Shown: positions 2,183-27,370 of the stretch, piece after piece
Layout: the number at the start of each line of letters is the position of its first letter
How positions within the stretch are numbered: position 1 is the first letter of the stretch
Sequence record: DRR723986_8438
DNA length: 32,938 nt
Direction: 5' to 3' (one strand)
The notes under the pieces: model-generated
Databases searched by the model: none
Told to the model about the DNA's origin: nothing
Seen by the model: the letters and a program-made list of their open reading frames with translations, nothing else
Program-made: the position numbers and the translations under genes

Positions 2183-2728
2183 ATGACAGTACAAGCCGGC
2201 GACCGTGCCCTACCCCTACGCCTGACCGCCATAAATGGTGAGGAGTTTGACATAGCCAGCTTAGCAGGCCGACCGTATATGCTGTCGTTCTTTCGCTTTG
2301 CCAGCTGCCCTTTTTGCAATATGCGGGTTCATGAACTGGTAAAGCGTTTCGATGAATTTACTAACGATTTTACGGTGGTCGCGGTATTTGACTCGCCGCT
2401 GGACAACCTTCAGGAGCACGCAGCTGACCATCACGCCCCCTTCCCAATTCTCGCCGATGAAACCGGCCAATACTACGAGCGCTACTCAGTGCAACGCTCA
2501 ATACTCGGGGTGATAAAGGGTATGCTGACGCGCATGCCCACAGCGATACGCGGCATGTGCAAAGGCTATGTGCCGACTACGATCAAGGGCAATATGACAA
2601 CCATGCCGGCCAATTTTTTAATTGACCGCGACGGTATTGTTCGCGTTGCTCACTATGGCAAAGACGAAGGCGATCACCTGCCCTTCGATGACCTGCTGGC
2701 GTTTTGCGCCACCCAGGACAACGCCTAG
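2183..2728 (+). CDS. Peroxiredoxin-like redoxin (AhpC/TSA family)
   Basis: FFRFASCPFC (CxxC), FPILADE, MPANFLIDRDGIVR motifs; GGAG RBS upstream. Confidence 0.85.
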   Translation: MTVQAGDRALPLRLTAINGEEFDIASLAGRPYMLSFFRFASCPFCNMRVHELVKRFDEFTNDFTVVAVFDSPLDNLQEHAADHHAPFPILADETGQYYERYSVQRSILGVIKGMLTRMPTAIRGMCKGYVPTTIKGNMTTMPANFLIDRDGIVRVAHYGKDEGDHLPFDDLLAFCATQDNA

Positions 2729-4227
2729 CAGTGTCTCAAGTCGTGGCGGTTTCGCTCGCGAGTATGCCGGGAGATCGCCTCGTAGTCGGCGAGCAGGATG
2801 TCACTACTGCGAGCCGGCTTGGCGCACAACTGGCAGGCAATCTGCGGCTTGGCACTTATCTCAAAACTGTCCTGAAGTGAGAAGTCGCCGGTAATGTACT
2901 GCCGTCCCTCATCGCTCAGGTCCAGCGGCGGCGAGCCATAGTACTCGCCGCGAATCTTGCCGGGGCTAACCGCATAGCGGCAAAAGCCAACGCCAATAAA
3001 TTCAGCCGCAGACCAAATTTGCGGGCCATTTTCATCGAACAGGCGAATGGAAGCGCCACCCGTTCCCACCAGCACCTGCACATAACCAAGGGGGTTGGGC
3101 AGCCCCAGCCCCATCGGTTTGGAGCGCTGATAGACATGGTCGTGCCCCACCGCTAACAGATCAACGCCATAGCGCAGCATAATGTTCTCTTCTAGCGCCA
3201 CCAACGTGGGGTTAGCCGGGCTGCGACCGAGCTGATCAGTCCAGATTGTGTAGTGCTGCATAACAACAATAAAGTCGATCTCACCCCGCGCTCGACGCAG
3301 TGCAGCCTGAGCCAGGTCGACCTCAATATTGATAATTTCTTCAACGAGGGTGCCGTCGTTGATCAAGGCCCCGGCCGTTGTTACAAGAAAATGCACGCGG
3401 TTGTAGTCGAAGGAATAGAACGAGCTGCCGGGGCTCCCCTGACCAATCACCGAACTCAATGGTTTGGGCGGGTGGGTAAAGCGGTTTTTAAAAGCCTCGC
3501 CACCAAAATCCTTTTGCTCGTGATTGCCCGGCGCGGTCATGGTAATGCGGTGAGCCAGCAGCGGCTCCATTTGCTCAAACCAGGTATCCCAGATTGGCTG
3601 GTCGCCATTCGCGTAGCTGAGATCCCCAGCAATCATAATCAGGTCTGCGGGTGTTTTTAGTACTTCGGCCGTCAATTGCTGGGGCAGGTCACCAATACCG
3701 TGATCGCCAAAGTGGATAAAACTCCACTCGCCGCGCGGCGACGGTGCAACCACATACACCGGAGACCAACCGCCCTCATCTGAGCCCACGCGGTAACGCA
3801 TGGGCTTTTCAGCATCAATCCCCGCTGCCGTTGCGCGGTGAGTAAAACTCTCTACCCCCGGCGTTTCGTCGGCACTCGCATCGACGAAGTGCTCGAACAC
3901 CTGCTCGGCGATATCAGCTTCGCTCATGCCCTCTTCAACCACACCAAACTCTAAACGAGACTGCGGCGGTTCAAGGCCATCGGTAAACCACGTTACCGTG
4001 CGCGAGGTGTGGCTGTCGCCAACAAAGCTGAGGTGCAAACCTCTTGGCGGGATGGGGCCGGGTTCAGCACTATCGGGTATCGGCTCAGGCTGCGGGGCCG
4101 GGGGAAGTGGCGAATCGACAGGGCCGCTGCTTGATGAGCTGCCCGAGGAGCCCCCACACGCGCTTAGAGCCAGACCTGCCATGCTACCCGCCAAAAAACG
4201 GCGACGACTTAAACTGCTTGAAGACAC
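2725..4227 (-). CDS. Purple acid phosphatase-family metallophosphoesterase, predicted Tat-exported lipoprotein
   Basis: All five PAP motifs occur in order: GDHG, GDLSY, GNHE, VMQH, GHDH. It has an FN3-like N-domain (PRGLHLSF...VTW), twin-arginine SRRRFL and lipobox LSAC. GTG start at 4227 is preferred because GGGGGGAG lies just upstream. Confidence 0.88.
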   Translation of the reverse strand: MSSSSLSRRRFLAGSMAGLALSACGGSSGSSSSSGPVDSPLPPAPQPEPIPDSAEPGPIPPRGLHLSFVGDSHTSRTVTWFTDGLEPPQSRLEFGVVEEGMSEADIAEQVFEHFVDASADETPGVESFTHRATAAGIDAEKPMRYRVGSDEGGWSPVYVVAPSPRGEWSFIHFGDHGIGDLPQQLTAEVLKTPADLIMIAGDLSYANGDQPIWDTWFEQMEPLLAHRITMTAPGNHEQKDFGGEAFKNRFTHPPKPLSSVIGQGSPGSSFYSFDYNRVHFLVTTAGALINDGTLVEEIINIEVDLAQAALRRARGEIDFIVVMQHYTIWTDQLGRSPANPTLVALEENIMLRYGVDLLAVGHDHVYQRSKPMGLGLPNPLGYVQVLVGTGGASIRLFDENGPQIWSAAEFIGVGFCRYAVSPGKIRGEYYGSPPLDLSDEGRQYITGDFSLQDSFEISAKPQIACQLCAKPARSSDILLADYEAISRHTRERNRHDLRHC

Positions 4228-4284
4228 AACGGCTCCCCCCGAAATCAATATCGCGGGGAGTGTAGGTGGCCAATATGAAAATCT

Positions 4285-4308
4285 GGTGACAGCCCAGTAA
4301 CTGCCACC
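4285..4308 (-). other. Intergenic stem-loop after the TonB receptor (mRNA stabiliser or weak terminator)
   Basis: Minus strand GGTGGCAG-TTACTGGG-CTGTCACC (8-bp stem with one G-U), followed by AGATTTT. Confidence 0.4.
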
Positions 4309-4320
4309 GGGAAACGCGAT

Positions 4321-6591
4321 TTAGAAAAAGGCCTTAAAGTCGACCCCGTAGGTGAGTGGGTCAACAATGCCCACGTGGTAGGTGCCCAGTACATCGCCGG
4401 TTAAACCGCCGGGCTGCGAAACCCGCTCGTTTTTCAAGAGGTTTTTACCCCACACCGCAAACTCATAGCCCCCTGACGGAGTGATAAAACTCACGCGGGC
4501 ATTGAGCAGTTCGGTATCATCGCCGTAACCGGGGACACGGTTAAACTCATCCAGGTGGTCCTCGTTCTCGCGGTCTGTATTCTCCTCGTACACATAGTCG
4601 AGGTGAAACAGCACGGTACCCGCAGCAAGTTCTGGCGACCAATCCAGGGTGAGCGTGTATTCCTGAGGTGTTGTCGCCGAACGATTGTCGGCGGTAACAA
4701 AATTACCCTGCGCATCGTAGTGCGCCTCGCGGCTGGACTCCTGCTCGCGGTAGGTGTAAATCACGCCAAAGCGGAGCGACTCGGTGGCCAACCAATCTAA
4801 GGTCAGCTCGACACCACTGATATCTTCATCGGTGTTAATCACCGTCGGCACCGCCGCACCACTGCCCGGCTGCTGCGACTCAATAGCCTCCTGGCGGTCG
4901 TCGATGGTCATTTGGAATAACGCCAACTGCGTTCGAATCGTCGTGGCTAAAAAGTCGCCTTTTATCCCCAGCTCATAGTTATTAACGACCTCTGGTTCCA
5001 GGGGAACATCCCCCGAGCCGGGGTTTAACGAGTCGTAGCCACCAGACTTGTAACCCGTAGAGTAACTGGCGAAGGCCATCGCTCCCTCGGCCAGCTGATA
5101 GTTCGCCACCAGGCGGCCGGTAATTTTGTCCCAGCTTTCGCTGGCACGCTCAACACCATTGGTGTTGAAGAAAAAGTTTTCCCCTTGTAATTGCGACAGC
5201 GGGAAATCGGTAAGCGGTGCATCCCAGCTGAACTGCTTGTCATCTTTGCTGTAGCGCAAACCGGCTAGAATATTCAGCCGGTCCGTCACCGTAAAATCGA
5301 CGTCTGAGTAAACGCCGTAGTTTTCAAAGTCACCGATATTGGTCATCGTCTCGGTAACATAATTACCGGCAATCACCCCTCCGATTAACGAGTTGAGCAC
5401 GTTGGCGGGCAGGCCCAACATGTCGGAGGCCAGCTCGACAACGGCGCCATAACTAAAGGTTAACGCGGTGAGCTGGTAGGTATCTTCGGTGCTGTAGTTA
5501 ACACCGAAAACCATATCGACATTTTCCAGTGCGATATTGAGCTGCGCTTCTAGGTAGCTAATATCGGAGTCTTCAACGTTGTTGGTATCTACATAAACAT
5601 CTTCAACGGCAGTACCGTCTTCATCTTGCAAATTATAGGTTTCAAATTCGCGGTGGCTAGCGATCAGGCTTAAGGTACTGGCATCGTTCACATCAAACCA
5701 GAGTTTGCCGACCACGCCGTACATATCGCGACGCTCACCAGGATTGCGCGCATCGGTACTGACTTTTCTATCCGTTGGGTCGGGAAAATCCGCGTATTGC
5801 TCGCTAATTCCCATCATCGCCTGCGGGCCGTTATCGACCTTGTCGTAATCGGCAGACAGCTGCATACGCAGCCGATCACTGGCCTGCCACAACAGTGATA
5901 CTTTGGCGAATTGGTTATCCTGCTCTCGCGGGTCTGGCCGCGATGGCCCCTTATTGTCGACCACGGCATCGCGCTGGTTGTGCAGCACATTGACTCGCAA
6001 AGCCAGATTGTCGCTCAGCGGCACATTCCCCATGCCCTCAATGCGAACGAGGCCGTAATTCCCGAGTTTCGCGGAGAGAAAGCCCTCGCGCGCTTCAGGG
6101 TCGGGAAGGTTGGAAACGAAGCTGACCACGCCTGCTGCGGCATTACGCCCAAACAGCGTGCCCTGCGGGCCTTTCAAAACCTCGACACGGCCCATATCTG
6201 AAAATGGCACCGTTATCGCCGCACGAGGAAGGTAGACACCATCCAAGAATGTGGCGACGGAGGGGTCACCACCGGTGCTGATGTTAGAACTTTCAATACC
6301 GCGGATCACAAAGGAGGACTGGGTAACACCGCCAGCATCCTGAATGTTAGTCCCCACTTTCAAGCCGGGAATATAGGCTTGAATGTCGGTCATGGTTAAG
6401 GCCCCGGTATTTTCCAGATCCTGGGTACTGAAGGTATCCACGGTTACCGGCACCGTCATGGCACTCTGCTCCCGCTTCTGCGCGGTGACCACAACTTCCT
6501 CTAGGGCGAGGTTGTTTGCCGCCTGCGCGCCTGTTGCCACTAAGGTCGCGGCGATTGCTGCGCCTATTCGCGCTCGATGCCCTGCCTTCAT
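4321..6591 (-). CDS. TonB-dependent outer-membrane receptor
   Basis: Signal peptide (AQA), TonB box LEEVVVTAQKRE, plug motif VEVLKGPQGTLFGRNAAAG, C-terminal YGVDFKAFF ending in Phe; 756 aa. Confidence 0.95.
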   Translation of the reverse strand: MKAGHRARIGAAIAATLVATGAQAANNLALEEVVVTAQKREQSAMTVPVTVDTFSTQDLENTGALTMTDIQAYIPGLKVGTNIQDAGGVTQSSFVIRGIESSNISTGGDPSVATFLDGVYLPRAAITVPFSDMGRVEVLKGPQGTLFGRNAAAGVVSFVSNLPDPEAREGFLSAKLGNYGLVRIEGMGNVPLSDNLALRVNVLHNQRDAVVDNKGPSRPDPREQDNQFAKVSLLWQASDRLRMQLSADYDKVDNGPQAMMGISEQYADFPDPTDRKVSTDARNPGERRDMYGVVGKLWFDVNDASTLSLIASHREFETYNLQDEDGTAVEDVYVDTNNVEDSDISYLEAQLNIALENVDMVFGVNYSTEDTYQLTALTFSYGAVVELASDMLGLPANVLNSLIGGVIAGNYVTETMTNIGDFENYGVYSDVDFTVTDRLNILAGLRYSKDDKQFSWDAPLTDFPLSQLQGENFFFNTNGVERASESWDKITGRLVANYQLAEGAMAFASYSTGYKSGGYDSLNPGSGDVPLEPEVVNNYELGIKGDFLATTIRTQLALFQMTIDDRQEAIESQQPGSGAAVPTVINTDEDISGVELTLDWLATESLRFGVIYTYREQESSREAHYDAQGNFVTADNRSATTPQEYTLTLDWSPELAAGTVLFHLDYVYEENTDRENEDHLDEFNRVPGYGDDTELLNARVSFITPSGGYEFAVWGKNLLKNERVSQPGGLTGDVLGTYHVGIVDPLTYGVDFKAFF

Positions 6592-6700
6592 GCTTTACCC
6601 TCTTCGCTTCTCACCATGCTGCGCGGCGGCTTGCATTCGAAAAGAAGAGCGGCGTTCTGGCGACGCCGTCACAACTCACAAGCCTCGGTCGTTTACCTCG

Positions 6701-6760
6701 TACTTTTTAATCTCTTACTTCTCAATCTCTTACTTCTCAATCTCTTATCTCTCAATCTCT
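6701..6760. repeat. Four tandem copies of a 15-bp unit spanning the stop codon of the beta-helix gene
   Basis: TACTTTTTAATCTCT / TACTTCTCAATCTCT / TACTTCTCAATCTCT / TATCTCTCAATCTCT. Confidence 0.92.
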
Positions 6761-8142
6761 AGCATATATTCTGCCACTTTGCGCCTTAACTCCTCCGATA
6801 GATGCGACTGAGTTGGCATAGGCGGATAATCCGGGCGAATCTTGTGTGGCTCAGCAATATAATTGGCAATGCCCTCTGGGTTCTTGTGGTACAGGGCTTG
6901 GATCGCCAGCGTGGGCGGCCCAATCATCCGCATATTGTAGGCGTGACACCCCGCACAAATACCTTGATAAAGCCGCTTAGTACGGTCCTCATCATTTTCG
7001 ATTTCTCGTGGCGGTGCACCATCAGCAAGCAGGTAGGTATCAATATCGTGCGTATTAGTTCGCTCGCACTTGCTCCATTTCTTTAGGCCAAAGGTGATGT
7101 ACTGTTCTTTTTGCAAGATGCAGTTATCCGGCTCTTGAGCAGAACCGATATTGGCAAAAACATCCGGGCCACGGCGGGTGAATTGCGTGAGCATGGCCGC
7201 TTTAATTTCGGGAACAGGATCAGTGCCGTTGTCATACATTAGGTTATCGAGAATGGCGATGCGGTCCGGGTTCGGCTCAGATTCGGGGTCTGAAGCAATA
7301 TCGGTAACAAAGCCGAGATCGGTAATTACGATACCCGCCGTCGTGTTACCAGAAATGATATTACCCTCGACGATCACATCATCCGCCGCCATGATAACCA
7401 CACCGATACCGCGTGGCACCTTGGCAACAATCGAGCCCGGCGCACCAAAATTTTCGGTATTGTTATTCACCACAAAGTTGTCGCGCAGAATCACATCGTA
7501 GGCGGTTTTAATCGGTAAGCCTGGGGTAATAAATACCAGCAGACCTGCCGTATTGTTGTGAGCATAGTTGTTTTCGACAATCGCATGCCGGGTGTTTTCA
7601 ATTTCAATCCCCGCCACGTTGTCAAACACTTCATTGTGGCGAACCACGACGTTGTCACACATGCCAACGTAGATCGCCGCATCCTCGATGCCACTGAGCA
7701 CGTTGTATTCAATCAGGCCGTTTTTACCGAACTGAGGGAATATGCCGTAGACGCCGGTATCGATAACCCGGTTGTAGCGGATGATGTAGTTATTACCGGC
7801 CTGCCCCATAATGGCATTGCCTTTGTAATGCTTAATGGTCAGCCACTCTACGGTAACGTCGTTACCGGAGTACAAAATCGCGTCATTGCGTTTGTGCTCG
7901 CCGTCGAGTACCGGCCACTCCCCCTCAACCACCACGCCGCGCAGGGTGATATTGTCCTTATCGATATAGACGCTTTCTTTGTAAGTACCGGGGTGAATTA
8001 AAATCACATCCCCGGGCGCAGCCGCGTTCACTGCCTCCTGAATAGATTGGCCATCTTTCACGGCAAGCTCGGCGGCAAAGGCCGCGCCTGAAGTGATTAA
8101 CAAACACAGCCATAGCGCCAACTTGGCAACGGGCTTTTTCAT
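6745..8142 (-). CDS. Secreted right-handed parallel beta-helix protein (TIGR03805-like) fused to a C-terminal class I cytochrome c
   Basis: ATG at 8142 with AAGGAG RBS; signal peptide ending AFA. Motifs SIQEAVNAAAPGD, DAAIYVG, NVAGIEIEN, NNTAGLLVF, NNNTENFGAPGSIVAKVP; C-terminal CAGCH...IGPP...PMP. Confidence 0.85.
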   Translation of the reverse strand: MKKPVAKLALWLCLLITSGAAFAAELAVKDGQSIQEAVNAAAPGDVILIHPGTYKESVYIDKDNITLRGVVVEGEWPVLDGEHKRNDAILYSGNDVTVEWLTIKHYKGNAIMGQAGNNYIIRYNRVIDTGVYGIFPQFGKNGLIEYNVLSGIEDAAIYVGMCDNVVVRHNEVFDNVAGIEIENTRHAIVENNYAHNNTAGLLVFITPGLPIKTAYDVILRDNFVVNNNTENFGAPGSIVAKVPRGIGVVIMAADDVIVEGNIISGNTTAGIVITDLGFVTDIASDPESEPNPDRIAILDNLMYDNGTDPVPEIKAAMLTQFTRRGPDVFANIGSAQEPDNCILQKEQYITFGLKKWSKCERTNTHDIDTYLLADGAPPREIENDEDRTKRLYQGICAGCHAYNMRMIGPPTLAIQALYHKNPEGIANYIAEPHKIRPDYPPMPTQSHLSEELRRKVAEYMLEIER

Positions 8143-8183
8143 GGTTCTGCTCCTTAGGTTTTCTACCCAGGCATTGATTGCTA

Positions 8184-9341
8184 TCAATGGCTTCCCAGTA
8201 CTGGCGTCAGCCCTGACGGCACGCGTTCGGGCAGTGTCGGCATATAGCTTTCGTCAGTCAGTGTTTTCATAAAGTCGACGAGGCGATCCAGCTCCTCATC
8301 GGTGAGATTCGGCTCCCAAATATGCCAGTGCAGGCTGAGCTTCTCGCCGGCGGGTACAGCGTGTCCCCGTCCGCCGTTATAAAACGCCGTGGCATCGCGC
8401 AGCGTGGCAAAACGCCCCGAGTGCATATAGGGCGCCGTCAGCGCAACGTTGCGCAACGAAGGCACTTTAAAGCCGCCACGCTGCGACGCATCGCCGGTCA
8501 CGCCCTGCACGCCGGGGTCAAGTGCTCGCCCGTCCGGCTCTGGCGTCCCCAGTACCGCAACCTGCTGGTTAGTAAACAGCGGCGGGGTGTGACACTCCGC
8601 GCAGCGCGCCACAAACGAGCGGAAGATATTCATCCCCTCAATTTCCTGGGCGTTGAGAACATCGTGATACCCGTGGGCGTAGAGGTCGTAACGGCTGTTT
8701 AACGACACCAGGGAAGACTCAAAAGCGGCAATCGCGGTGTAGATCTGATCCAACTGAACCGATGCATCACCACCGAAGGCCTCGGCAAATAGCGCGGGGT
8801 AATGCGCCGAGGCGCGAAGATCGGCCAGCAGTTGTGCCGGGCTGTTCGCCATTTCCACCGGGTCGTAAAGGGGCCCCTGCATTTGCGCCTCCAGCGAGTC
8901 TGCCCTGACATCCCAGAACAAGCGCTTAAGAAAACCGACATTCCACAAACTCGGCGCCGATCGCTTGGCAAGCTGCCCTCCGGCGCCAATGCTCAGTCCA
9001 CGTCCATCGGCAAAACCCTTACTCGGATCGTGACAGGAGGCACAGCTCAACTGGTGATTACCCGACAGCACCGGGTCAAAGAACAGCAAGCGGCCGAGGT
9101 CAATTTGCTGGGGGCTAAAGCCCTCTCGCAGCGTGGGTAAGCCGGTTTTCAGTCCGCCCACACCACTTTTTTGAAGCGATCGGTAATCGCGATACAAGCT
9201 CAGCAAATAGCAGCCGCCATCGCGCAAGGTAAAACCCGCCGGACAAAATTCATTGAGTTTCCAGGTTTGCGCAGCGTGGACAGCCGGCAAATAAAACAGC
9301 AGCACGAGGCAAGGCAACAAGGCCCGCGTGTAAGCACTCAT
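8184..9341 (-). CDS. Diheme enzyme of the bCCP/MauG superfamily, MauG-like subtype
   Basis: Signal peptide; LGRLLFFDPVLS, CASCH, FWD, QxxxPxxxPVEM, CAECH, FKVPSLRNVALTAPYMHSG...AFYN. Confidence 0.9.
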   Translation of the reverse strand: MSAYTRALLPCLVLLFYLPAVHAAQTWKLNEFCPAGFTLRDGGCYLLSLYRDYRSLQKSGVGGLKTGLPTLREGFSPQQIDLGRLLFFDPVLSGNHQLSCASCHDPSKGFADGRGLSIGAGGQLAKRSAPSLWNVGFLKRLFWDVRADSLEAQMQGPLYDPVEMANSPAQLLADLRASAHYPALFAEAFGGDASVQLDQIYTAIAAFESSLVSLNSRYDLYAHGYHDVLNAQEIEGMNIFRSFVARCAECHTPPLFTNQQVAVLGTPEPDGRALDPGVQGVTGDASQRGGFKVPSLRNVALTAPYMHSGRFATLRDATAFYNGGRGHAVPAGEKLSLHWHIWEPNLTDEELDRLVDFMKTLTDESYMPTLPERVPSGLTPVLGSH

Positions 9342-9343
9342 TG

Positions 9344-10069
9344 CTAGTCGGCCAGTGACTGAATATACGCCAGCACATCGCGCAGTACGGCTTCGTCTGG
9401 CAGGGAATCCGCCATCATCGCCATCTGGTAGCCGTATTTATCGGCTTCATCCGCACCGCGAATACCGTCTCGAAAATGAATAAATTGACGCTCTAAATAC
9501 CAGTCATCAACCCCCGCCAGAGCAGGCGCTTGCAGCAATTCAATCCCTTCAGCCGCGGGGCCATGACAGGCACCACACAGATTGCTGTAGTAATCGGCGC
9601 CGCGTTTTAGGTCGCCGCTAAGCGTCGCCGCTGCCGCCTGACTTCCCATCGCCGAGATGTATGTCACGACCGCGTCGACCGCCTCGCTGTCGGGTAAGGT
9701 CTTGGCGATTGCCTGCATTTGCTGGCCATAGCTGTCTTCAGGATGGCTACCGCGCAGCCCCGAGCGATAGGCCTGCAACTGACGCGTCAAATACCAGCTC
9801 TGCTGGTTGCGCAGCGACGGCGCGCCCAGCGACTGGTTACCCTGTGCCTCATCGCCATGGCAGGCCACGCAGGCCTGATAGAGCGCCTTGCCATCTGCCC
9901 CCGCTCCATTGGCCAGCAGTTGCTGAGCTGCCGCTGCGGCTTGTTCACTATCGGCCGATGGCCCCTGGTCAGAACTACACGCCACGACGGCAAGCGAGCA
10001 CAGTACCACCGCCAGGCGGCGATAGCGCTTGAAGTTATGCAAATTGAAATGGCCAGACACACTTTCCAT
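9344..10069 (-). CDS. Diheme cytochrome c4/c553-like lipoprotein
   Basis: ATG at 10069 with GGAG RBS (the 10243 start is over-extended). Lipobox VVAC; two homologous domains with CVACH and CGACH, WYLxRQ, and YGxQM Met ligands. Ends 2 nt before the next ATG. Confidence 0.88.
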   Translation of the reverse strand: MESVSGHFNLHNFKRYRRLAVVLCSLAVVACSSDQGPSADSEQAAAAAQQLLANGAGADGKALYQACVACHGDEAQGNQSLGAPSLRNQQSWYLTRQLQAYRSGLRGSHPEDSYGQQMQAIAKTLPDSEAVDAVVTYISAMGSQAAAATLSGDLKRGADYYSNLCGACHGPAAEGIELLQAPALAGVDDWYLERQFIHFRDGIRGADEADKYGYQMAMMADSLPDEAVLRDVLAYIQSLAD

Positions 10070-10314
10070 GGGGCGGCTCCGTAATCCTATGTAGAACTGG
10101 CCACGACGAGTGGTGCAGGCCAGTATTATTATTTTTATCCAGCATAGACCGTGCCATGAAAAAGCACAGCCAATACACACAGCAAAGTTTACGTGTATTA
10201 CATTGACAATACCCGCTTCCGCCATGGCTGTTAAGCCCCACACACATTACAATCGCGTAAAAAATATGCCCACGGTGTAGGTTTCTAGAAATTCTCTATA
10301 TTTTTCATTGAGAT

Positions 10315-10344
10315 AAAAAGGCCCCTTCGCGAGAACAAAGGGGC
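10315..10344 (-). terminator. Intrinsic terminator after the metal-dependent hydrolase gene
   Basis: Minus strand GCCCCTT-N10-AAGGGGC followed by CTTTTT. Confidence 0.6.
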
Positions 10345-12455: not shown

Positions 12456-14324
12456 TTAGGGATTGTCAGTGTAGAGCGTGTAATCACCACTGCCACTGTA
12501 TGACTTCACACGCCAGCGGTAGGTGCCACTGGTGCCGTTGTAGGTCACTTCTTCGTTTGAGCTCGCCGTCTCACTGCTGGCCACGCTCGACCAACTGCTA
12601 AAGAACAGGCGGCGGCTATATTTTTCCAGAATGAGATCGAAATCGGCATTTGCAGGGCCCTCTAGCAGACCATAGAACTGGCCACCATTGCTGGAGAAAC
12701 CGCCGCTGCTCGGGCTGTAGTCATTGTCATTACTACCGGTGAGCGTGCCACTGGTTTGCTCACACTCAGGACAGGGACCAGCACCGGGCTCTTGCAGGCT
12801 CAGTAGCTGGCTATCTGTATCCTGCTGGCCAGCAGTGTCGCTCACAGTCAGCGTAACGGTAACGTCGCCGTAGGCTGCATAAGTATGGCTAACACTCGCG
12901 CCAGCGGCCGAGCTTCCATCGCCAAAGTTCCAGCTGTACTGCTGAATGCCCTGATCGTCAGACGATGCCGACGCATCAAAGCTACAGCTGAGTTCATTAC
13001 AGCTATAGCTAAAGGACGCCACCGGCGGGAAGTCGACACCTTCACCTTGGGCAACCTGCAGCAGCAGGTTGGGAGAACCACTGCCCAGACCACTCAACTT
13101 ATTGCTGGTACCGTCTTGCAATAGTGTGCTGAAAACACTGGCCGGCGCTGCGTTAGGGTTTTGCGACAGAATCAACGCCGCCGCACCGGCAACGTGTGGC
13201 GCAGCCATTGATGTGCCGCTGATGGTGTTAGTGTCGTTATCGCTCTGGTACCAGGCAGAGGTGATCGCCGAACCGGGAGCAAAGATATCAACGCAGCTTC
13301 CTTTATTGGAGAAGGAAGAACGCGAATCAGATGACGTTGTTGAACCAACGGTCACCGCTTCAGCCACGCGGTTAGGTGAACCGCTACAGGCGTCGGTATT
13401 GTCATTACCGGCTGCCACCACAAAGGTAACGCCCGCATTAATCGCGCCTTTTACTGCTTCGTCCAAAGCGGTACTGTTGCCGCCGCCCAGGCTCATGTTG
13501 GCAACTGCCGGCGCTTGATGGTTTGCCGCGACCCAGTCCACACCGGCAATAACACCGGAGTTGCTGCCTGAACCGTTACAACCCAGTACACGTACCGGAT
13601 ACACTGTGGCGCCCTTTGCCACACCGTAGGTGCTGCCCGCGGCCGTACCGGCAACGTGGGTGCCGTGACCATTACAGTCATCGGTATCTTCAGGGTCAGT
13701 ACTGCTAAAGAACAAGCCGCCAGAGGCGGCAAAGTTACGACCTACACCTGTGCGGCCGGAGAACTCATTGTGACTGCTGCGAATACCGGTATCGACGATG
13801 TAAACGTGAACGCCACTGCCATCGGCGCTGTAAGAGTATTGATTATCCAGCGGCAGCGAAGGCTGGTCGACACGATCCAGTCCCCAGGTCGCGTTATTCT
13901 GAACCGCAGCAATCGAGACGGTCTGATCCTGCTCAACCAGTTTTACCAGGGGATTCTTGGCCAGTAAGGCCGCCGCTTCCGGGCTCATTTTGGCCACGAA
14001 ACCGCTGACCGCATTTTGATAAACACCCAATAGCTGACCACCCACTGTCGCCAGCAACTGATCCACCAGGTCTGGCAGAGGCAGCGCCCCAAGCAAGCTG
14101 TCTTCTGCTTTTTGCAACAGCACAATGTATTGACCGTCGATCGGCTCACCTGCGGTCAGGTCGTCAGAGACCGAGGTTTCAAAGGTGCCTAGCTGCTGAG
14201 CGTCGTCTTGCTGCGCGGCACTCTGCAGGTTCGCGTCATCGCCCGAACCACCACTACCGCCGCCACATGCTGACAAGCCAAAGGCCAGCATCGAGCTCAT
14301 AATCAGCGCTCTGTTTTTCATCAT
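12456..14324 (-). CDS. Subtilisin-like S8 serine protease (aqualysin/proteinase K-like) lipoprotein with I9 propeptide, PKD and PPC-like domains
   Basis: Lipobox [12 protein letters not shown]; catalytic [37 protein letters not shown]-terminal [18 protein letters not shown]. Confidence 0.95.
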
Positions 14325-14496: not shown

Positions 14497-15519
14497 CTAC
14501 CAGCGGGCGAAGTGATCTTCTGCAAAACCCCACTGCCCGGACAATTCCAACTCCTCGCCCGGCAGGCTAATGCGACCATAGTAGCGGCCAAAAAACTGGG
14601 TAAAGTTTGAAGCGATCACCACCGCGTTGCGCTTTTCACTGCGCTGACCCGCTGGTTCAAAACGCAGATCCAAGATGCCATCTTGCGACCGCATACCCCA
14701 CGGCGCCTCGCCGTCTTGGCGGTCAAAGTCGAACACGACGGTGCTGAGCTTCACCATCTGATCATCCAGCCACAGCGCATTTTCGGTATAGCCCGTATCA
14801 TTCACACCGGCGACTAAATTAAAGCCGATGCGACGGCCATCACTGAGGTGGGCTGACAAGCTTCCCCAGTTCCAGAACGTCTCGCGCCGCATATAGCCTG
14901 CGCTCCAATCCACTCCAGCCAGCGCCGACATCGCCGCGAGGTCGTAGTCGCGCCCCCGCCACCGCACGCTACCCGACACCGGCCTGGCCGTGGTTTTCTG
15001 GGTGTACACCCAGCCCGCATAGCCTGCTCGCGTGCAAATCGATAACGGTTGATAACCCTGTTCTTCATCGATGATTGCGTCGACCTGCAAGCCACTGGCA
15101 AGCGACACAGTGAGGTGGCGTTGACCGGGCCCGGCGACAATCTTTACGCGATTTTTCCCCGAGCAAAAATGCGCCTCGCCGTTATTGGGCTGAGTGTGAA
15201 TGGCCGTTTTCAGACCCAGGGGCTGAACAAAGCTGAACTCATCGTACTCACCGCTATCCGGCGCATAGCAATAGACAAAGGCATTGCTCACCCACTTCAG
15301 GTCGACAATCGCCACGCCAATTATCAGCTCGTCACAACACAGCGATAAAAACTGGAATTGGTTGAAAGCGAAGTGGCGCGCCAACTTGCCGCGCGGCTTA
15401 TCCATTGCGTTGCGCAGGTCGTAGTCGCGATAATTGATATCGCCGACAGGCCGCTCGAAAACGCCAAAATGAGGCTGCCCATTCGCCTTGATTAACGCTG
15501 CTAAATCACCCAACTTCAC
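14497..15519 (-). CDS. DUF2804-family protein
   Basis: FNQFQF, GWVYTQK, DWSAGYMRRETFWNW, GFNLxAGVN, ENALW, SNFTQFFG, GFAEDHFARW C-terminus; GTG start with GGAG RBS. Confidence 0.75.
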   Translation of the reverse strand: MKLGDLAALIKANGQPHFGVFERPVGDINYRDYDLRNAMDKPRGKLARHFAFNQFQFLSLCCDELIIGVAIVDLKWVSNAFVYCYAPDSGEYDEFSFVQPLGLKTAIHTQPNNGEAHFCSGKNRVKIVAGPGQRHLTVSLASGLQVDAIIDEEQGYQPLSICTRAGYAGWVYTQKTTARPVSGSVRWRGRDYDLAAMSALAGVDWSAGYMRRETFWNWGSLSAHLSDGRRIGFNLVAGVNDTGYTENALWLDDQMVKLSTVVFDFDRQDGEAPWGMRSQDGILDLRFEPAGQRSEKRNAVVIASNFTQFFGRYYGRISLPGEELELSGQWGFAEDHFARW

Positions 15520-19792: not shown

Positions 19793-21298
19793 ATGCAGTT
19801 GCAGCGCCCCGATCTGCTTCGCGACAACAACTACATTAACGGCCAATGGCAGGCTGCCGCCAGCGGCCGGCGCTTTCCCGTAGAGAACCCCGCCAATGGC
19901 GAGAAACTGACAGAGGTTGCCGATGGCGGCACCGCCGACATGGACGCCGCCATCACGGCAGCCGACGCCGCACAAGCCGCCTGGCAAAGCGAAACACCCA
20001 AAGCCCGCGCGCAGATTCTGCAGCGCTGGTATCAGTTGATCATTGAACACCGCAGCGATCTCGCGGCGATTCTCACCGCCGAACAGGGCAAAGTACTCGC
20101 CGAGGCGGATGCTGAAATTGGCTACGGCGCCAACTATGTTGAATGGTTTTCTGAAGAGGCCAAGCGCATCGATGGCGACATTCTCGCAGCCCCGTCGCGC
20201 GACAAACGGCTACTGGTCATCAAACAGGCTATTGGTGTGGTTGCGGCGATTACGCCGTGGAATTTCCCCAACGCCATGATCACTCGCAAGGCAGCGCCGG
20301 CATTGGCGGCGGGTTGCTGCATTGTGATCAAGCCCGCCCATGAAACACCGCTCAGTGCCCTTGCCTTAGCGGCGCTGGCCGACGAGGCCGGCTTCCCTGC
20401 CGGGGTGTTTAATGTGGTCTGCGGCACACAGGCCAGCGACATCGGCAGCGTGATGACAAGCAGCCCATTGGTGCGCAAGCTCAGCTTCACCGGATCGACC
20501 CGCGTCGGCAAAATTCTGATGGAACAGTGCGCCGCGACGGTTAAAAAAACGTCCATGGAGTTGGGTGGCAATGCGCCATTTATCGTATTTGACGACGCCG
20601 ATATCGACGCCGCCGTCGCCGGCGCTCTGGCGTCTAAGTACCGCAATGCAGGCCAAACGTGTATCTGTAGCAATCGCATTCTCGTGCAGGATGGCATCTA
20701 CGATGCCTTTGCCGCGCGCTTTGCCGCCGAAGTCCAACAATTCCGGCTCGGCGATGGCCGCGATAGCGATGCCACAATGGGGCCCCTCATCACCCGCCAG
20801 GCTTGCGACAAGGTCACCGCGCTGGTCGACGATGCGCTGTCGAAAGGCGCATCAGCCATTACCGGCGGACGACGAGCCAGTATTGGCGAGCATTTTTTTG
20901 AACCGACTGTGCTGCGCGATGCCACGCCAGCCATGCGGGTATTTCAGGAAGAAATTTTTGGCCCGGTGGCCCCCTTGTTCCGCTTCGAGAATGAACAACA
21001 GGCGATCGCGCTGGCCAATGACACTAACTACGGGCTCGCCGCCTACTTTTACACCCAGAATTTAAACCGCGTCTGGCGGGTGGCAGAGGCCCTTGAGTAC
21101 GGCATTATCGGCATTAACGAAGGCGTCACGTCGAGTGAAATGGCGCCTTTCGGCGGTATGAAGGAATCGGGGATCGGTCGCGAAGGCTCGAAATACGGCA
21201 TCGACGACTACGTTGAGCTGAAGTACCTGTGTCTGGGTGGCCTGGACAACCAGCGGCAATCTTCAGGCAAAAAAAAGCCCCCAAAAGGGGGCTCTTAG
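19793..21298 (+). CDS. gabD: NAD(P)-dependent succinate-semialdehyde dehydrogenase
   Basis: ITPWNFP, SFTGST, MELGGNAP, RNAGQTC, EEIFGP, PFGGMKESGIGREGSKYG; AGGAG RBS. Confidence 0.9.
   Translation: MQLQRPDLLRDNNYINGQWQAAASGRRFPVENPANGEKLTEVADGGTADMDAAITAADAAQAAWQSETPKARAQILQRWYQLIIEHRSDLAAILTAEQGKVLAEADAEIGYGANYVEWFSEEAKRIDGDILAAPSRDKRLLVIKQAIGVVAAITPWNFPNAMITRKAAPALAAGCCIVIKPAHETPLSALALAALADEAGFPAGVFNVVCGTQASDIGSVMTSSPLVRKLSFTGSTRVGKILMEQCAATVKKTSMELGGNAPFIVFDDADIDAAVAGALASKYRNAGQTCICSNRILVQDGIYDAFAARFAAEVQQFRLGDGRDSDATMGPLITRQACDKVTALVDDALSKGASAITGGRRASIGEHFFEPTVLRDATPAMRVFQEEIFGPVAPLFRFENEQQAIALANDTNYGLAAYFYTQNLNRVWRVAEALEYGIIGINEGVTSSEMAPFGGMKESGIGREGSKYGIDDYVELKYLCLGGLDNQRQSSGKKKPPKGGS
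21269..21293 (-). terminator. Intrinsic terminator for the P450 gene, lying inside the 3' end of the gabD ORF
   Basis: Minus strand AGCCCCC-TTTT-GGGGGCT-TTTTTTT, about 20 nt after the P450 stop. Confidence 0.8.
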
Positions 21299-21312
21299 CA
21301 CGGCCGCTACCC

Positions 21313-22560
21313 TTAGACTTCTGGGTCAAAAGTAATCGGCATGGCTTTAATGGTGTTGATGAAGAACGAGCGCATGTAGGTAACATCGCCGGCAAACTTG
21401 GGGTTACGCAAGCGTGGAATCAGCTCTTCAAAAATAATATTCAGCTCCATGCGCGCCAGGTTCATACCCAGGCAGAAATGCTCGCCGATACCAAAAGAAC
21501 GGATCTCGCGGCGCATATTCGGCAGGCGCTTAGCGCGGTGAATATCGAACTTCATGGCATCGTCACCGTAGGCGTCTTCGTCGTGGTTGACTGCATGGTA
21601 GTGCAGCACAACTTTGTCGCCTTTTTTGATGTTGTGGCCATTCCATTCGATGTCCTGAGTGGCGGTGCGGCGCATCGCGATGAACGCGGTGTTGTAGCGC
21701 AGCATTTCCTCGACCGCATCGGGGATGTCTTCAGGGTGATCCACCAGGTGTTGCAGCTGCTCGGGGTGCTCGATCAGCAGGCGCATACCGTGAGCGGTTG
21801 CAGTACGAGTACTCTCGTTACCACCCACCATAATCAGGATGAACATCCAGGCGAACATTTCCTCGTCGACTTTTTTGCCGTCAACTTCACCATTCAGCAA
21901 GGCTTCAACCACGGGGCTGGTGGGGTTTTCGCGCTGTTTGGCAGCCAGTTCAGCAGCGTAGGCAATAACCTCAAAGCTGACCGCGTTGGCTTCATCGCGG
22001 CTGGTCGCCAAGTCAGGGTCATCGGCGAAGGCCATGATGTTAGTCCAATCGAAGAACTGCTTGCGGTCTTCCTGGGGCACGCCCAGCAGCTCCAGAATTG
22101 CCATCAAGGGCAGCTCGGCAGCCACATCTTCAACAAACTCACACTCGCCTTTCTTGGCAACACGGTCAATGATTGAGCGCGCACCTTTGCGCAGCCACTC
22201 TTCCATATTTGCCACTGCGCGCGGCGTGAAAGCATCGCGAACAATTTTGCGGTACTTCATGTGCTTGGGCGGATCCATAGCGATAATGATGTTTTCGTGC
22301 ATCACCGCTTGAATCTCTTCCTCACCTTCGGGCACTTCCATCGGGAAGGGGCCTTCAACGTTAGATGAGAATAAATCCGGGTTTTGCGAGACGAAATCCA
22401 GCGCATCACGCTTTACAACGGCCCAGTACGGCACGCCATTTTCGGGGTCATCCATGTACACCATTGAACCGGCTTGGCGGATCTTCGCCAGCTCTTCATA
22501 GGGCATACCGTTTACGTAAGTATCCAGACTGAGCAGGTTGGTAAAGGGACACTGGCTCAT
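21313..22560 (-). CDS. Cytochrome P450 (resembles the CYP124/125/142-type lipid/steroid side-chain oxidase group)
   Basis: MDPPKH, I-helix VGGNESTR, EMLR, heme motif FGIGEHFCLG; ATG at 22560 after GAGGA. P450 identity is clear; the subfamily is uncertain. Confidence 0.92.
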   Translation of the reverse strand: MSQCPFTNLLSLDTYVNGMPYEELAKIRQAGSMVYMDDPENGVPYWAVVKRDALDFVSQNPDLFSSNVEGPFPMEVPEGEEEIQAVMHENIIIAMDPPKHMKYRKIVRDAFTPRAVANMEEWLRKGARSIIDRVAKKGECEFVEDVAAELPLMAILELLGVPQEDRKQFFDWTNIMAFADDPDLATSRDEANAVSFEVIAYAAELAAKQRENPTSPVVEALLNGEVDGKKVDEEMFAWMFILIMVGGNESTRTATAHGMRLLIEHPEQLQHLVDHPEDIPDAVEEMLRYNTAFIAMRRTATQDIEWNGHNIKKGDKVVLHYHAVNHDEDAYGDDAMKFDIHRAKRLPNMRREIRSFGIGEHFCLGMNLARMELNIIFEELIPRLRNPKFAGDVTYMRSFFINTIKAMPITFDPEV

Positions 22561-22637
22561 AATTGTTTTCCTCAATTACGCCCGGCACGAGGGCTTTTTT
22601 CGATTATTTACCGCGTGACGACCCGGGAACGTGGTCA

Positions 22638-26112: not shown

Positions 26113-26124
26113 CGTGTCATTTCC

Positions 26125-27084: not shown

Positions 27085-27370
27085 AATTATCCTGTTTATC
27101 AACGGTAAGCCGGCTGGGCACATGCAGCCTCTGCTCATAGTTTCACAAGCGTGGCCTTTGTTACAAAATTCGTCAAAAAATGCGCCGCAGCATGTGCAGG
27201 CTTACGCGCCAATGCCGGTGACGGAGCAAGCGGCCAGCAAAAAGCAGCGGAATTGCCGAGGGCCGGCGCTGCGATCGCAGGAATTCGTTCAATAATCCAC
27301 CAATTGACGCGCGCAGAGCCGGAAAATTGATTTATAATGCGCGGTTTTTACGCGACGAGAGCAAAAGCCA

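Follow-up and report, generated by a model that had tools for sequence, protein, structure and literature searches.

The dihaem enzyme, the β-helix/cytochrome c protein and the c4-like cytochrome encoded together in this DNA from a marine bacterium make up a conserved periplasmic haem set that is an undescribed system. Full-text literature searches turned up no account of such a system or of a characterised pathway; the preliminary description had proposed the five-gene cluster as a candidate undescribed system. Our leading, and still tentative, interpretation is an undescribed periplasmic oxidation complex that would act on a bound, probably imported substrate and that excludes the purple acid phosphatase encoded nearby. 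The window analysed is a stretch of 32,938 nucleotides (record DRR723986_8438).

Five genes follow one another on the minus strand. The first encodes the c4-like cytochrome (9344–10069; ORF 9344–10243, with the ATG at 10069 giving 241 residues), followed by the dihaem enzyme (8184–9341; 385 residues) and the β-helix/cytochrome c protein (6745–8142; ORF 6745–8187, ATG at 8142, 465 residues). A TonB-dependent receptor (4321–6591; 756 residues) and a purple acid phosphatase (2725–4227; ORF 2725–4248, GTG at 4227, 500 residues) complete the series. With these start codons the gaps of 2, 41, 153 and 93 nt given earlier are recovered, as are the five CxxCH sites (2+2+1) in the translations. Export signals were recognized by eye in all five translations, a visual judgement with no predictor behind it: Sec-type signals in the dihaem enzyme, β-helix protein and receptor, a lipobox (AVVAC) in the c4, and a twin-arginine motif (RRRFL) with a lipobox (LSAC) in the phosphatase.

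The haem-protein core is defined by its gene neighbourhood, which we examined at 80 related loci; these loci are kin, and the counts overstate their independence. The dihaem gene lies immediately 5′ of the β-helix/cytochrome c gene at all 74 loci with sufficient upstream DNA, and both orthologue-bearing genomes in a 301-genome sample of the class keep this pairing. In other phyla, the two proteins are joined in one polypeptide of ∼740 residues in 117 of the best 120 long homologues, which are 43–49% identical to the window enzyme, and a modelled fused protein folds as a single body (pTM 0.86 over 740 residues). An Atlas cluster of 2158 members shares the fused architecture (score 0.83), and is taken here as a lead only. 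Invariable adjacency, natural gene fusions and the MauG-type Tyr ligand described below support the three-haem-gene core far more strongly than the sequence alone could suggest, and its earlier ranking above the receptor and phosphatase is upheld. Loci of the Pseudomonas type and of the fused clade are surrounded by housekeeping genes; the substrate may thus be a constant envelope component instead of an imported nutrient, and we count this against our preferred explanation.

The dihaem enzyme belongs to the CCP_MauG superfamily (PF03150, 186.5 bits) and contains two haem-binding sites, CASCH and CAECH. Its best curated family match is MbnH (TIGR04039), where it scores 227.6 bits, below the cut-off of 362.85; against MauG (TIGR03791) it scores 166.6 bits, below the cut-off of 443.85. 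Tyr294 of MauG aligns with Tyr321 of the window enzyme, as does the equivalent Tyr of 6e1c, the solved structure that best matches the enzyme's C-terminal part. By this alignment, the second haem is predicted to have the His/Tyr ligation of the MauG/MbnH type rather than the Met of peroxidases; in the nearest genome, a canonical CCP paralogue carries Met there. Across 20 orthologues the invariant residues include both haem sites (C100/C103/H104 and C247/C250/H251), W143, Y321, and C33 and C44, a pair of cysteines located in an N-terminal extension that distinguishes the enzyme from MauG.

One reading of these features is peroxide defence, in which the dihaem protein would be a cytochrome c peroxidase fed by the c4 and the fused cytochrome c, and the β-helix would serve as a scaffold or envelope anchor. 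The best solved matches over the full length of the enzyme are canonical peroxidases (MacA, 163 bits, versus 103 bits for MauG), small cytochromes are the usual electron donors of cytochrome c peroxidases according to the available part of PMC10582990, and a convergent gene at 2183–2728 encodes a thiol-peroxidase-like AhpC/TSA domain. However, Tyr takes the place of Met as ligand of the electron-transfer haem, the nearest genome already has its Met-type peroxidase, and an AhpC-like gene is found at just 4 of the 80 loci. In addition, the β-helix face shows a mean column identity of 69% across two phyla, which is unexpected for a passive scaffold. We regard peroxide defence as improbable.

The partner of the dihaem enzyme is a right-handed β-helix of the TIGR03805 family (215.9 bits, cut-off 141.5) followed by a C-terminal monohaem cytochrome c domain with a single CAGCH site. 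Gammaproteobacterial and Bacteroidota forms are 58–62% identical. The folds nearest to its AF2 model (pLDDT 85, pTM 0.85) are those of polysaccharide-acting β-helices, led by the A-module of the mannuronan C-5 epimerase AlgE4 and alginate lyases (AlgE4: Z 32.0, rmsd 2.3 over 284 residues, 20% identity). The likeness is generic, with Z declining smoothly from 32 to 24 across 50 entries, and this too weighs against the preferred explanation. The invariant Tyr132 and Pro136 fall where the catalytic motif of these enzymes, of the YG.DPH type, has its Tyr and Pro, whereas Phe135 and Gln137 stand in place of its Asp and His; we also know of no epimerase or lyase that requires haem partners. The residues invariant throughout the family, Tyr132, Asp154, Tyr158, Glu180 and Glu182, form an acid/tyrosine cluster across adjacent coils of the β-helix. 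To our knowledge, no TIGR03805 protein has an assigned substrate, cofactor or activity, a further point on the negative side for our interpretation.

Some other proteins bind Fe(III) through tyrosinate/carboxylate sites, and the Tyr/Asp/Glu cluster could be read as a site for a metal or a receptor-imported chelate, with the haem proteins switching its redox state for release or storage. The β-helix protein resembles NosD, a periplasmic β-helix partnered with a redox metalloprotein in nitrous oxide reductase maturation (NosDFY), weakly in sequence (Pfam NosD and TIGR04247; 63.8 bits against the NosD cut-off of 300) and well in fold (Z 28.3, rmsd 2.4 over 264 residues). It differs from NosD in its fused haem domain and in the lack of nosFY and nosZ nearby. 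FeoB is encoded downstream at one paralogue locus (L101), and the top curated match of the window receptor is a siderophore-receptor subfamily, at 134.7 bits against a cut-off of 223.5; the receptor reached the cut-off of none of the curated receptor subfamilies. Against metal processing, no conserved Fur-box-like site was found 5′ of the c4 or receptor gene (the best candidates match 8–14 of 19 positions, in places that are not conserved), neither a metal chaperone nor an ABC importer is linked, and the neighbours in Bacteroidota, an aldehyde dehydrogenase and SusC/SusD/PKD proteins, suggest that the substrate is organic. This makes metal processing decidedly improbable.

The main rival to an oxidation complex is maturation of the β-helix protein. 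The dihaem enzyme would oxidise one or more β-helix residues once, generating a protein-derived cofactor or metal site, and the matured β-helix would then be a dehydrogenase passing electrons through the fused cytochrome c to the c4. The fused haem domain fits such a role: dehydrogenases that require an outlet for electrons typically carry a fused cytochrome c, as in quinohaemoproteins. The dihaem enzyme also has the Tyr ligand and C-terminal region of MauG/MbnH, and the β-helix protein is its invariable neighbour. In 30 β-helix sequences of the same clade, Trp76, Met161 and His186 are invariant and Cys162 is nearly so. Every His/Tyr enzyme of the superfamily that has been characterised, namely MauG and MbnH, acts on a partner protein rather than on a small molecule, as far as the available text of PMC11951088 goes, and each modifies a protein encoded adjacent to it (PMC11951088, PMC6405878, both from partial text); this favours maturation over our preferred explanation. 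Three observations stand on the other side. The candidate residues are poorly kept in the fused forms, with Trp76 and His186 each present in 2 of 5, Met161 in none of 5, and Cys162 replaced by Ser in the five sequences read; the four are likewise not kept in paralogous forms, and this lack of conservation weakens the cofactor-installation alternative. One-to-one covalent fusion of a maturase with a single-use substrate would be unusual. Finally, the haem partner of the β-helix in the sister family, whether paired with it or fused to it, is the unrelated dihaem cytochrome TIGR03806, which suggests that haem partners are working subunits. We consider maturation rather unlikely on balance, with a clearly better chance than the other alternatives.

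The window enzyme shares with MauG, which acts on pre-methylamine dehydrogenase in TTQ biogenesis, its superfamily, two CxxCH sites, periplasmic location, aligned C-terminal region and a dedicated partner encoded as a neighbour. It resembles MbnH (MbnH/MbnP, also CorB/CorA and MopE), which forms a kynurenine-copper site, in being encoded beside its partner. Neither methylamine dehydrogenase subunits nor MbnP-named families are present among the 28 ORFs scanned in the window, as the preliminary description had stated. Unlike the MauG partner, that of the window enzyme is a β-helix/cytochrome c fusion, and relatives of the enzyme are fused to their partner in other phyla. Unlike MbnP, the β-helix protein has no WxW-type motif kept across clades, and the only invariant Trp of its clade, Trp76, is lost in three of five fused forms. 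A parallel on the β-helix side is the TIGR03805/TIGR03806 pair (SO2930-family dihaem cytochrome): its β-helix is of the same family (over the core, the window protein is 37% identical to the nearest-genome paralogue), invariably has a dihaem c-type partner, separate or fused, and often adjoins a TonB-dependent receptor and an AraC-type regulator. The window system differs in that its haem partner is a CCP_MauG enzyme with no detectable similarity to TIGR03806, its β-helix has its own cytochrome c domain and a c4 gene is added.

A third module, a cytochrome c, is always the companion of the dihaem/β-helix pair. In the window it is the domain fused to the β-helix; in 23 of 33 metagenome loci a separate 126-residue lipoprotein cytochrome is encoded immediately 5′ of the fused gene. 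The c4-like protein is a lipoprotein dihaem class-I cytochrome c (Pfam Cytochrom_C in two stretches, 80.8 bits) with CVACH and CGACH sites, and its gene is immediately 5′ of the dihaem gene in 39 of the 71 loci with enough room. It probably carries electrons between the complex and the respiratory chain.

The receptor, with Plug and TonB barrel domains, is probably an accessory component serving substrate import. Its orthologues, counted from 45% identity upwards, are encoded at 28 of the 80 loci, and a TonB-dependent transporter of any kind lies within three ORFs in 47, being immediately 3′ on the same strand in 40. Two transporter classes from two phyla are linked in this way, with a classical receptor encoded in Gammaproteobacteria while Flavobacteriaceae have SusC/SusD, and linkage recurs at 4 of 10 sister TIGR03805/TIGR03806 loci; methanobactin operons likewise include a linked TonB-dependent transporter. 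The transporter gene is absent within three ORFs at the other 33 loci, which counts against the preferred explanation and leaves the earlier claim of receptor membership partly upheld. Of the 80 loci, 23 also contain a gene for a class-3 aldehyde dehydrogenase, which in L024 is immediately 5′.

Transcription signals place the 5′ boundary of the unit at the intrinsic terminator of the upstream gene (10321–10344, minus strand), a 10-pair hairpin followed by CUUUUUAU, where a terminator had been proposed. The region folds better than shuffled sequences (z = −2.5), and among the RNA contigs listed from four runs, positions 10203–10327 are uncovered. Two weak σ70-like matches (10128–10234, minus strand; 9 of 12 positions each) lie 5′ of the c4 gene, with no excess overall (6 found, 6.6 expected from shuffles). 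The claim that no strong U-tract terminator lies inside the cluster stands insofar as both internal sites are weaker, and is qualified by their presence: a hairpin-plus-U site found by terminator scan in the β-helix/receptor gap (6668–6650, minus strand), and a 10-pair stem followed by a poor U tract, AGAUUUUCAU, between the receptor and phosphatase genes (4285–4308, minus strand; region z = −2.0), possibly a partial terminator. Across the whole stretch the scan gave 12 terminator-like sites where shuffled sequences predict 12.1, so such matches alone mean little. A 15-nt tandem repeat of 4.3 copies (6697–6760, minus strand) starts with the last codons and stop of the β-helix gene, and 15 nt are missing from one RNA contig at 6709. 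RNA from four marine metatranscriptome runs covers all five genes, and of the four junctions three are spanned by contigs: c4/dihaem (X4, 9244–9925), dihaem/β-helix and receptor/phosphatase (X1, 3274–4490). None of those listed covers the full β-helix/receptor gap, and the contigs, which may include DNA, are no proof of a single transcript.

The phosphatase, a Tat-exported lipoprotein with Pur_ac_phosph_N and Metallophos domains, is a neighbour outside the unit. The preliminary description had included it, proposing that it might remove the phosphate from an organophosphate such as an ether lipid; on that pathway this would happen extracellularly, with the receptor importing the product and the haem trio oxidising it. 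The five genes do share a strand, an RNA contig crosses the receptor/phosphatase gap, and BthA of Burkholderia, a MauG-like enzyme, always adjoins a putative purple acid phosphatase according to the available part of PMC6405878. BthA, with its stable bis-Fe(IV), shares with the window enzyme its orphan status, its MauG-like dihaem character and its Tyr ligand, and here the phosphatase lies 4 kb away. However, the window enzyme resembles BthA weakly (103 bits, spread over two stretches) and no more closely than it resembles MauG, a stable hairpin separates the receptor and phosphatase genes, and the phosphatase is missing from 77 of 80 loci. It is present only in L001, L002 and L006; it is absent from two close Spongiibacter relatives, L003 and L004, in which the AhpC-like gene comes immediately after the receptor gene. 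Synteny thus nearly refutes the organophosphate pathway, and no evidence points to such a substrate.

For the oxidation complex that we prefer, the MauG/MbnH-type enzyme would be permanently seated on the TIGR03805 β-helix protein, and the lipid-anchored c4 would connect them with the respiratory chain. What has been observed is the conserved pairing, the fusions, the Tyr ligand, the linkage to transporters and the RNA cover; association into a complex, the direction in which electrons flow, the kind of substrate and the chemistry are inferred. The β-helix groove, lined by the acid/tyrosine cluster, would hold an organic substrate that is polar and possibly sugar-like and that would enter, in this organism, through the adjacent receptor. 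The dihaem subunit may reach a high-valent state using H2O2, or O2 with electrons from the c4 and the fused cytochrome c, and would then oxidise the bound substrate at a distance. In Bacteroidota, the adjacent class-3 aldehyde dehydrogenase would process the product further.

The cluster comprises five genes, all on the minus strand and spaced by 2, 41, 153 and 93 nt, as the preliminary description had it. Read from its 5′ end, it encodes a two-domain class-I cytochrome c protein of 241 residues (c4-like, called c4 below; 9344–10069), a CCP_MauG dihaem protein of 385 residues (8184–9341), a 465-residue TIGR03805 right-handed β-helix protein with a C-terminal monohaem cytochrome c domain (6745–8142), a TonB-dependent receptor of 756 residues (4321–6591) and a purple acid phosphatase of 500 residues (2725–4227). 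All five were assigned by domain search, and the five CxxCH sites counted previously are all present. Signals judged by eye are a lipobox in c4, a twin-arginine motif plus lipobox in the phosphatase, and Sec-type signals in the dihaem enzyme, the β-helix protein and the receptor. Pfam Cytochrom_C matches the c4 protein in two stretches, and the protein has two CxxCH sites; it matches no curated c4 model, and the NCBIfam model it fits best, ccoP, gives 56 bits (cut-off 179.95). The nearest loci, named in their records as Spongiibacter marinus and Neomelitea salexigens, are 99% identical at the protein level, and the nearest genome used for comparison (G001) has 69% of sampled words in common with the window.

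A good terminator at 10344–10321, 3′ of a PF10118 gene, bears out the proposed separation of the cluster from the gene upstream, and two weaker hairpins, each with a poor U tract, are found within the cluster (6668–6650 and 4308–4285). At 6697–6760 on the minus strand, a 15-nt unit is repeated in tandem 4.3 times. Its first unit consists of the last four codons of the β-helix gene and the TAA stop, so that an in-frame stop recurs with each further unit. Copy number is variable: 15 nt are missing at 6709 from one RNA contig, and the receptor match begins 30 nt nearer the β-helix gene in one phosphatase-bearing locus (L002) than in another (L001). Upstream of the cluster lie genes for a secreted S8 subtilase that contains a PKD domain (12456–14324, minus strand) and a DUF2804 protein (14497–15519, minus strand); their place is kept in 15 of 80 related loci, every one of which is named in its record as Spongiibacter or Zhongshania.

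RNA contigs 95–99% alike cover all five genes in four marine metatranscriptome runs (X1–X4), which hold 32–43% of sampled words. The c4–dihaem junction is bridged in X4 (9244–9925), the dihaem–β-helix junction in X1 (7846–8409), X2 (7754–8620) and X3 (7350–8376), and the receptor–phosphatase junction in X1 (3274–4490). No piece among the contigs listed spans the whole β-helix–receptor gap, which is neutral on co-transcription there. Among the pieces listed, 10203–10327 is uncovered in all four runs; the terminator and a putative promoter lie there, and the gap hints weakly at a transcript boundary. Such contigs may include DNA and cannot prove a single transcript.

Gene membership was assessed in 80 loci around relatives of the β-helix protein, taken from species-level genomes and scored with the window proteins and by ORF clustering. 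The dihaem gene lies directly upstream of the β-helix gene on the same strand in all 74 loci with at least 1150 nt upstream, a count that overstates independence, as the loci are kin. Of the other six, four cut loci retain the 3′ part of the dihaem gene and two have too little DNA. The c4 gene precedes the dihaem gene in 39 of 71 loci with room for it, and in Pseudomonas-type loci the trio stands alone amid housekeeping genes. Within a 301-genome sample of the class, orthologues of the dihaem enzyme occur in two genomes (892 and 516 bits), both with an adjoining β-helix gene; the third-best match reaches just 187 bits, which marks the clade as discrete. The neighbourhood comparison upholds the core pair and the earlier ranking of the three haem genes above receptor and phosphatase. 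The phosphatase is found in 3 of the 80 loci (L001, L002 and L006).

The phosphatase is itself a sound member of its family, with matches to PF16656 (36.3 bits) and PF00149 (49.1 bits) that give it the N-terminal purple acid phosphatase and metallophosphoesterase domains. Its translation contains GDHG, GDLSY, GNHE, MQH and GHDH, which we take to be the metal-binding motifs of this enzyme class. Two close relatives, L003 and L004, lack it; in both, an AhpC/TSA gene (SelL-related redox family) directly follows the receptor gene, pointing to insertion or loss of the phosphatase. In the window the AhpC/TSA gene (2183–2728, plus strand) and the phosphatase gene are convergent, with a 4-nt overlap at the phosphatase stop codon. 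A pathway in which the phosphatase strips an organophosphate or lipid, the receptor imports the product and the haem trio oxidizes it, as first proposed, is very improbable given the locus counts; we drop both phosphatase membership and the organophosphate/lipid scheme. The dihaem enzyme BthA offers a parallel: according to PMC6405878 it has a conserved tyrosine, forms bis-Fe(IV) and has no assigned function, and it is always beside a putative purple acid phosphatase, in all Burkholderia. In the window the phosphatase lies 4 kb from the MauG-like enzyme, but the two co-occur in just those three loci, and their proximity may be coincidence.

The link to outer-membrane transport is broader. The receptor has both domains of its class, the plug (PF07715, 67.4 bits) and the 22-strand barrel (PF00593, 119.1 bits), and an orthologue with at least 45% identity occurs in 28 of 80 loci. 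Any TonB-dependent transporter is found within three ORFs in 47 of 80, directly downstream on the same strand in 40 of 80; by taxon as read from record names, 32 of 43 gammaproteobacterial loci have one close by, as do 15 of 37 others. Flavobacteriaceae have a SusC/SusD pair as the transporter, with a PKD-domain protein after it, and the import link thus exists with two different transporter classes. Less frequent neighbours are a LytTR regulator (21/80) and a class-3 aldehyde dehydrogenase (23/80) whose best curated match, the benzaldehyde dehydrogenase MdlD, scores 404 bits, under the cut-off. A role of the cluster in metal processing could be read from the receptor's 134.7 bits with the siderophore-receptor model TIGR01783; this falls below the cut-off of 223.5, and we regard such a role as quite improbable. 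When the regions upstream of c4 (40 loci) and the β-helix–receptor gaps (31) were scanned with a 19-nt Fur-box consensus, the best matches covered 8–14 of 19 positions at places that are not conserved, and iron regulation was set aside as unsupported.

Two other gene pairs in the window deserve mention. An aldehyde dehydrogenase (501 residues, plus strand) and a cytochrome P450 (420 residues, minus strand) are convergent neighbours at 19793–22575; they fit the hydrocarbon- or lipid-degrading lifestyle suggested by the names of relatives, lie 10 kb from the haem cluster and show no linkage to it in the other loci. At 25069–27138 (minus strand) a radical SAM protein with DUF3641 adjoins a SAM-dependent methyltransferase, a pairing that presumably resembles the arsenosugar-type ArsS/ArsM pair.

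The dihaem enzyme matches PF03150 with 186.5 bits and has two CxxCH sites in the CCP_MauG fold, CASCH and CAECH, both invariant in 20 orthologues. When the whole protein is compared with solved structures, the top matches are canonical peroxidases (MacA, 163 bits) and 6e1c (160 bits), an entry titled just ‘Di-heme enzyme’ that we take to be MbnH; MauG and BthA each score 103 bits. The C-terminal 106 residues match along their length only 6e1c (56.6 bits) and MauG (55 bits). Here Tyr321 aligns with residue 294 of the MauG chains (FYN). In MauG the six-coordinate haem has Tyr294 as its axial ligand, and Tyr321 is the predicted counterpart of that residue by alignment. Tyr321 is invariant in the 20 orthologues and kept in fused forms and two MauG-like proteins. 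The full-length kinship with MacA would suit a specialized peroxidase; the corresponding position is methionine in MacA and in a paralogue from the nearest genome that is a canonical peroxidase (L085:1111–2118), and as the dihaem enzyme has tyrosine where canonical cytochrome c peroxidases have their Met ligand, we consider this assignment improbable.

Scores against the curated families for MauG (TIGR03791, 166.6 bits; cut-off 443.85) and MbnH (TIGR04039, 227.6 bits; cut-off 362.85) are both below threshold. None of 401 genomes of the phylum reached the TIGR03791 cut-off (best 368.5 bits), and solved MauG chains served for comparison. The enzyme is thus predicted to work in the manner of MauG and MbnH, yet is a member of neither family. 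Its N-terminal extension (residues 29–72) carries an invariant cysteine pair, C33 and C44, in a CP.GF...C motif, together with a GVGGL motif; the extension is absent from the five fused homologues read. To our knowledge, MauG and MbnH are the sole MauG-type enzymes with a known job, and both carry out long-range oxidation of a partner protein. According to PMC11951088, the protein on which MauG acts is pre-MADH, and Kyn174 of MbnP is formed by MbnH. MauG genes accompany those for the methylamine dehydrogenase subunits and MbnH has MbnP adjacent, whereas the neighbours of the dihaem enzyme are c4 and the β-helix protein; in line with the earlier reading, no methylamine dehydrogenase subunit or MbnP-named family appears among the 28 window ORFs scanned.

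The β-helix protein belongs to TIGR03805 by score (215.9 bits; cut-off 141.5). It is strongly conserved, with 58–62% identity between Gammaproteobacteria and Bacteroidota and a mean column identity of 69% across 30 sequences. A predicted model (pLDDT 85) has a right-handed β-helix followed by a small cytochrome domain. Its nearest solved fold is AlgE4 (Z 32.0, rmsd 2.3, 284 residues, 20% identity), followed by an alginate epimerase/lyase (Z 31.5) and NosD (Z 28.3). The list declines smoothly to Z 24 at rank 50, which indicates likeness at the level of fold only, and fold searches, which returned just the generic right-handed β-helix, were set aside as a guide to function. The NosD model TIGR04247 scores 63.8 bits, below its cut-off of 300, and no nos genes (nosFY/nosZ context) occur among the window ORFs scanned.

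Residues under wider constraint were sought by aligning 30 orthologues with 15 outside sequences, namely five fused forms and ten TIGR03805 paralogues. Tyr132 and Pro136 are kept in all 15 of the latter, and Asp154, Tyr158, Glu180, Glu182 and Asn183 in 14; the asparagine ladder and glycines survive as well, and Trp76, Met161, Cys162 and His186 are specific to the window clade. Given a coil period of about 22–23 residues, the surviving side chains would form one patch on neighbouring coils.

The two proteins also occur as natural fusions. An Atlas look-up through a homologue (P0003, 84% identical) returned a 2158-member cluster of about 735 residues with CCP_MauG and β-helix domains, at a score of 0.83 that, being below 0.9, counts as a lead only. 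Sequence search confirms it: 117 of the best 120 long-protein matches carry both PF03150 and PF13229. The fusions, of about 740–830 residues, are assigned by their sources to Anaerolineae, Blastocatellia, Rhodothermales and Fimbriimonadia and align with about 80% of the window enzyme at 43–49% identity. In five sequences read, a membrane anchor precedes the dihaem domain with its tyrosine, and the β-helix domain follows; the latter is plainly of the same family as the window protein. An AF2 model of one fusion (740 residues, pTM 0.86) suggests that the two domains are held in a fixed arrangement. For the separate proteins, a complex prediction with the dihaem enzyme, three haems and the β-helix protein, run without supplied alignments, scored 0.57 against 0.46 and 0.47 for controls and was set aside.

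Of 33 metagenome loci with a fused gene, each 8 kb or more in length, 23 have a gene for a 126-residue lipoprotein cytochrome c directly upstream; the remaining neighbours are housekeeping genes. In pairwise comparison this cytochrome has no similarity to c4 and marginal similarity (E 0.018) to the cytochrome c domain of the window β-helix protein. Separate and fused loci together show dihaem enzyme, β-helix and class-I cytochrome c modules recurring in two gene architectures. The other three of the best 120 long proteins (P0127, P0194 and P0222; 1088–1177 residues) join CCP_MauG to a carbon–nitrogen hydrolase domain (PF00795) and additionally hold PF21419 and cytochrome c, with no β-helix; they are another unexplored fusion of this enzyme type.

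TIGR03805 proteins also occur with a different haem partner. The family is present in 11 of 300 genomes of the class, and nine of ten paralogue loci have a TIGR03806 (SO2930-family) dihaem cytochrome, five as a separate gene and four fused. Of the ten loci, four have a receptor next to the paralogue and three an AraC-type regulator. TIGR03806 matches none of the window proteins, where the partner is CCP_MauG, and has no detectable similarity to the dihaem enzyme. The nearest genome itself encodes a 1020-residue TIGR03805/TIGR03806 fusion (L086, G001:C1:243000–258000; gene at 5131–8193, minus strand), with an 846-residue TonB-dependent receptor next to it and an AraC (QhpR/CypR-like) regulator close by, and this is a second uncharacterized β-helix/haem system in that genome. 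The unlike haem partners imply that the β-helix is the constant element and the c-type haem proteins are interchangeable working partners. Were the dihaem enzyme to modify the β-helix protein in a maturation step, it would do as MauG and MbnH do to their partner proteins; interchangeable partners tip the balance towards a standing complex over a one-off maturation, which we hold to be unlikely, though the likeliest of the alternatives.

Our preferred reading, at somewhat less than an even chance, is a standing periplasmic oxidation complex that acts on a bound, probably imported, substrate; explanations other than those weighed here take up the remaining probability. A more specific form is possible, if doubtful: the dihaem enzyme would be the first of the MauG family to serve as a permanent catalytic subunit, docked on, or in other phyla fused to, a substrate-holding β-helix, fed by dedicated cytochromes c, and oxidizing a periplasmic non-protein substrate by high-valent dihaem chemistry. 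Candidates for that substrate include imported polar organic compounds, glycan-like ones among them. Full-text searches found no account of the pairing and no function assigned to TIGR03805 or SO2930, and papers outside their reach could exist; in PMC8756737, ‘MauG’ and ‘beta-helix’ appear in unrelated table rows only.

A relative of the β-helix protein is encoded in 355 of 388 candidate stretches from the species-level genome collection, and 2400 proteins reach E ≤ 0.001 among 8000 candidates scored. The variant described here of the theme of a MauG-type enzyme with a dedicated partner is new, widespread and, through its natural fusions and compact three-gene unit, directly testable. It represents a third, widespread MauG-type branch, whose fixed partner is of quite another kind. 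If the more specific form of our reading is true, it would define a new class of extracytoplasmic oxidase coupled to the respiratory chain in Pseudomonadota, Bacteroidota, Chloroflexota and Acidobacteriota. Working out its function would assign a role to the long-standing TIGR03805 family, show whether bis-Fe(IV) chemistry extends beyond cofactor biogenesis, and account for a set of genes often seen beside the TonB-dependent and SusCD transporters of marine heterotrophs.
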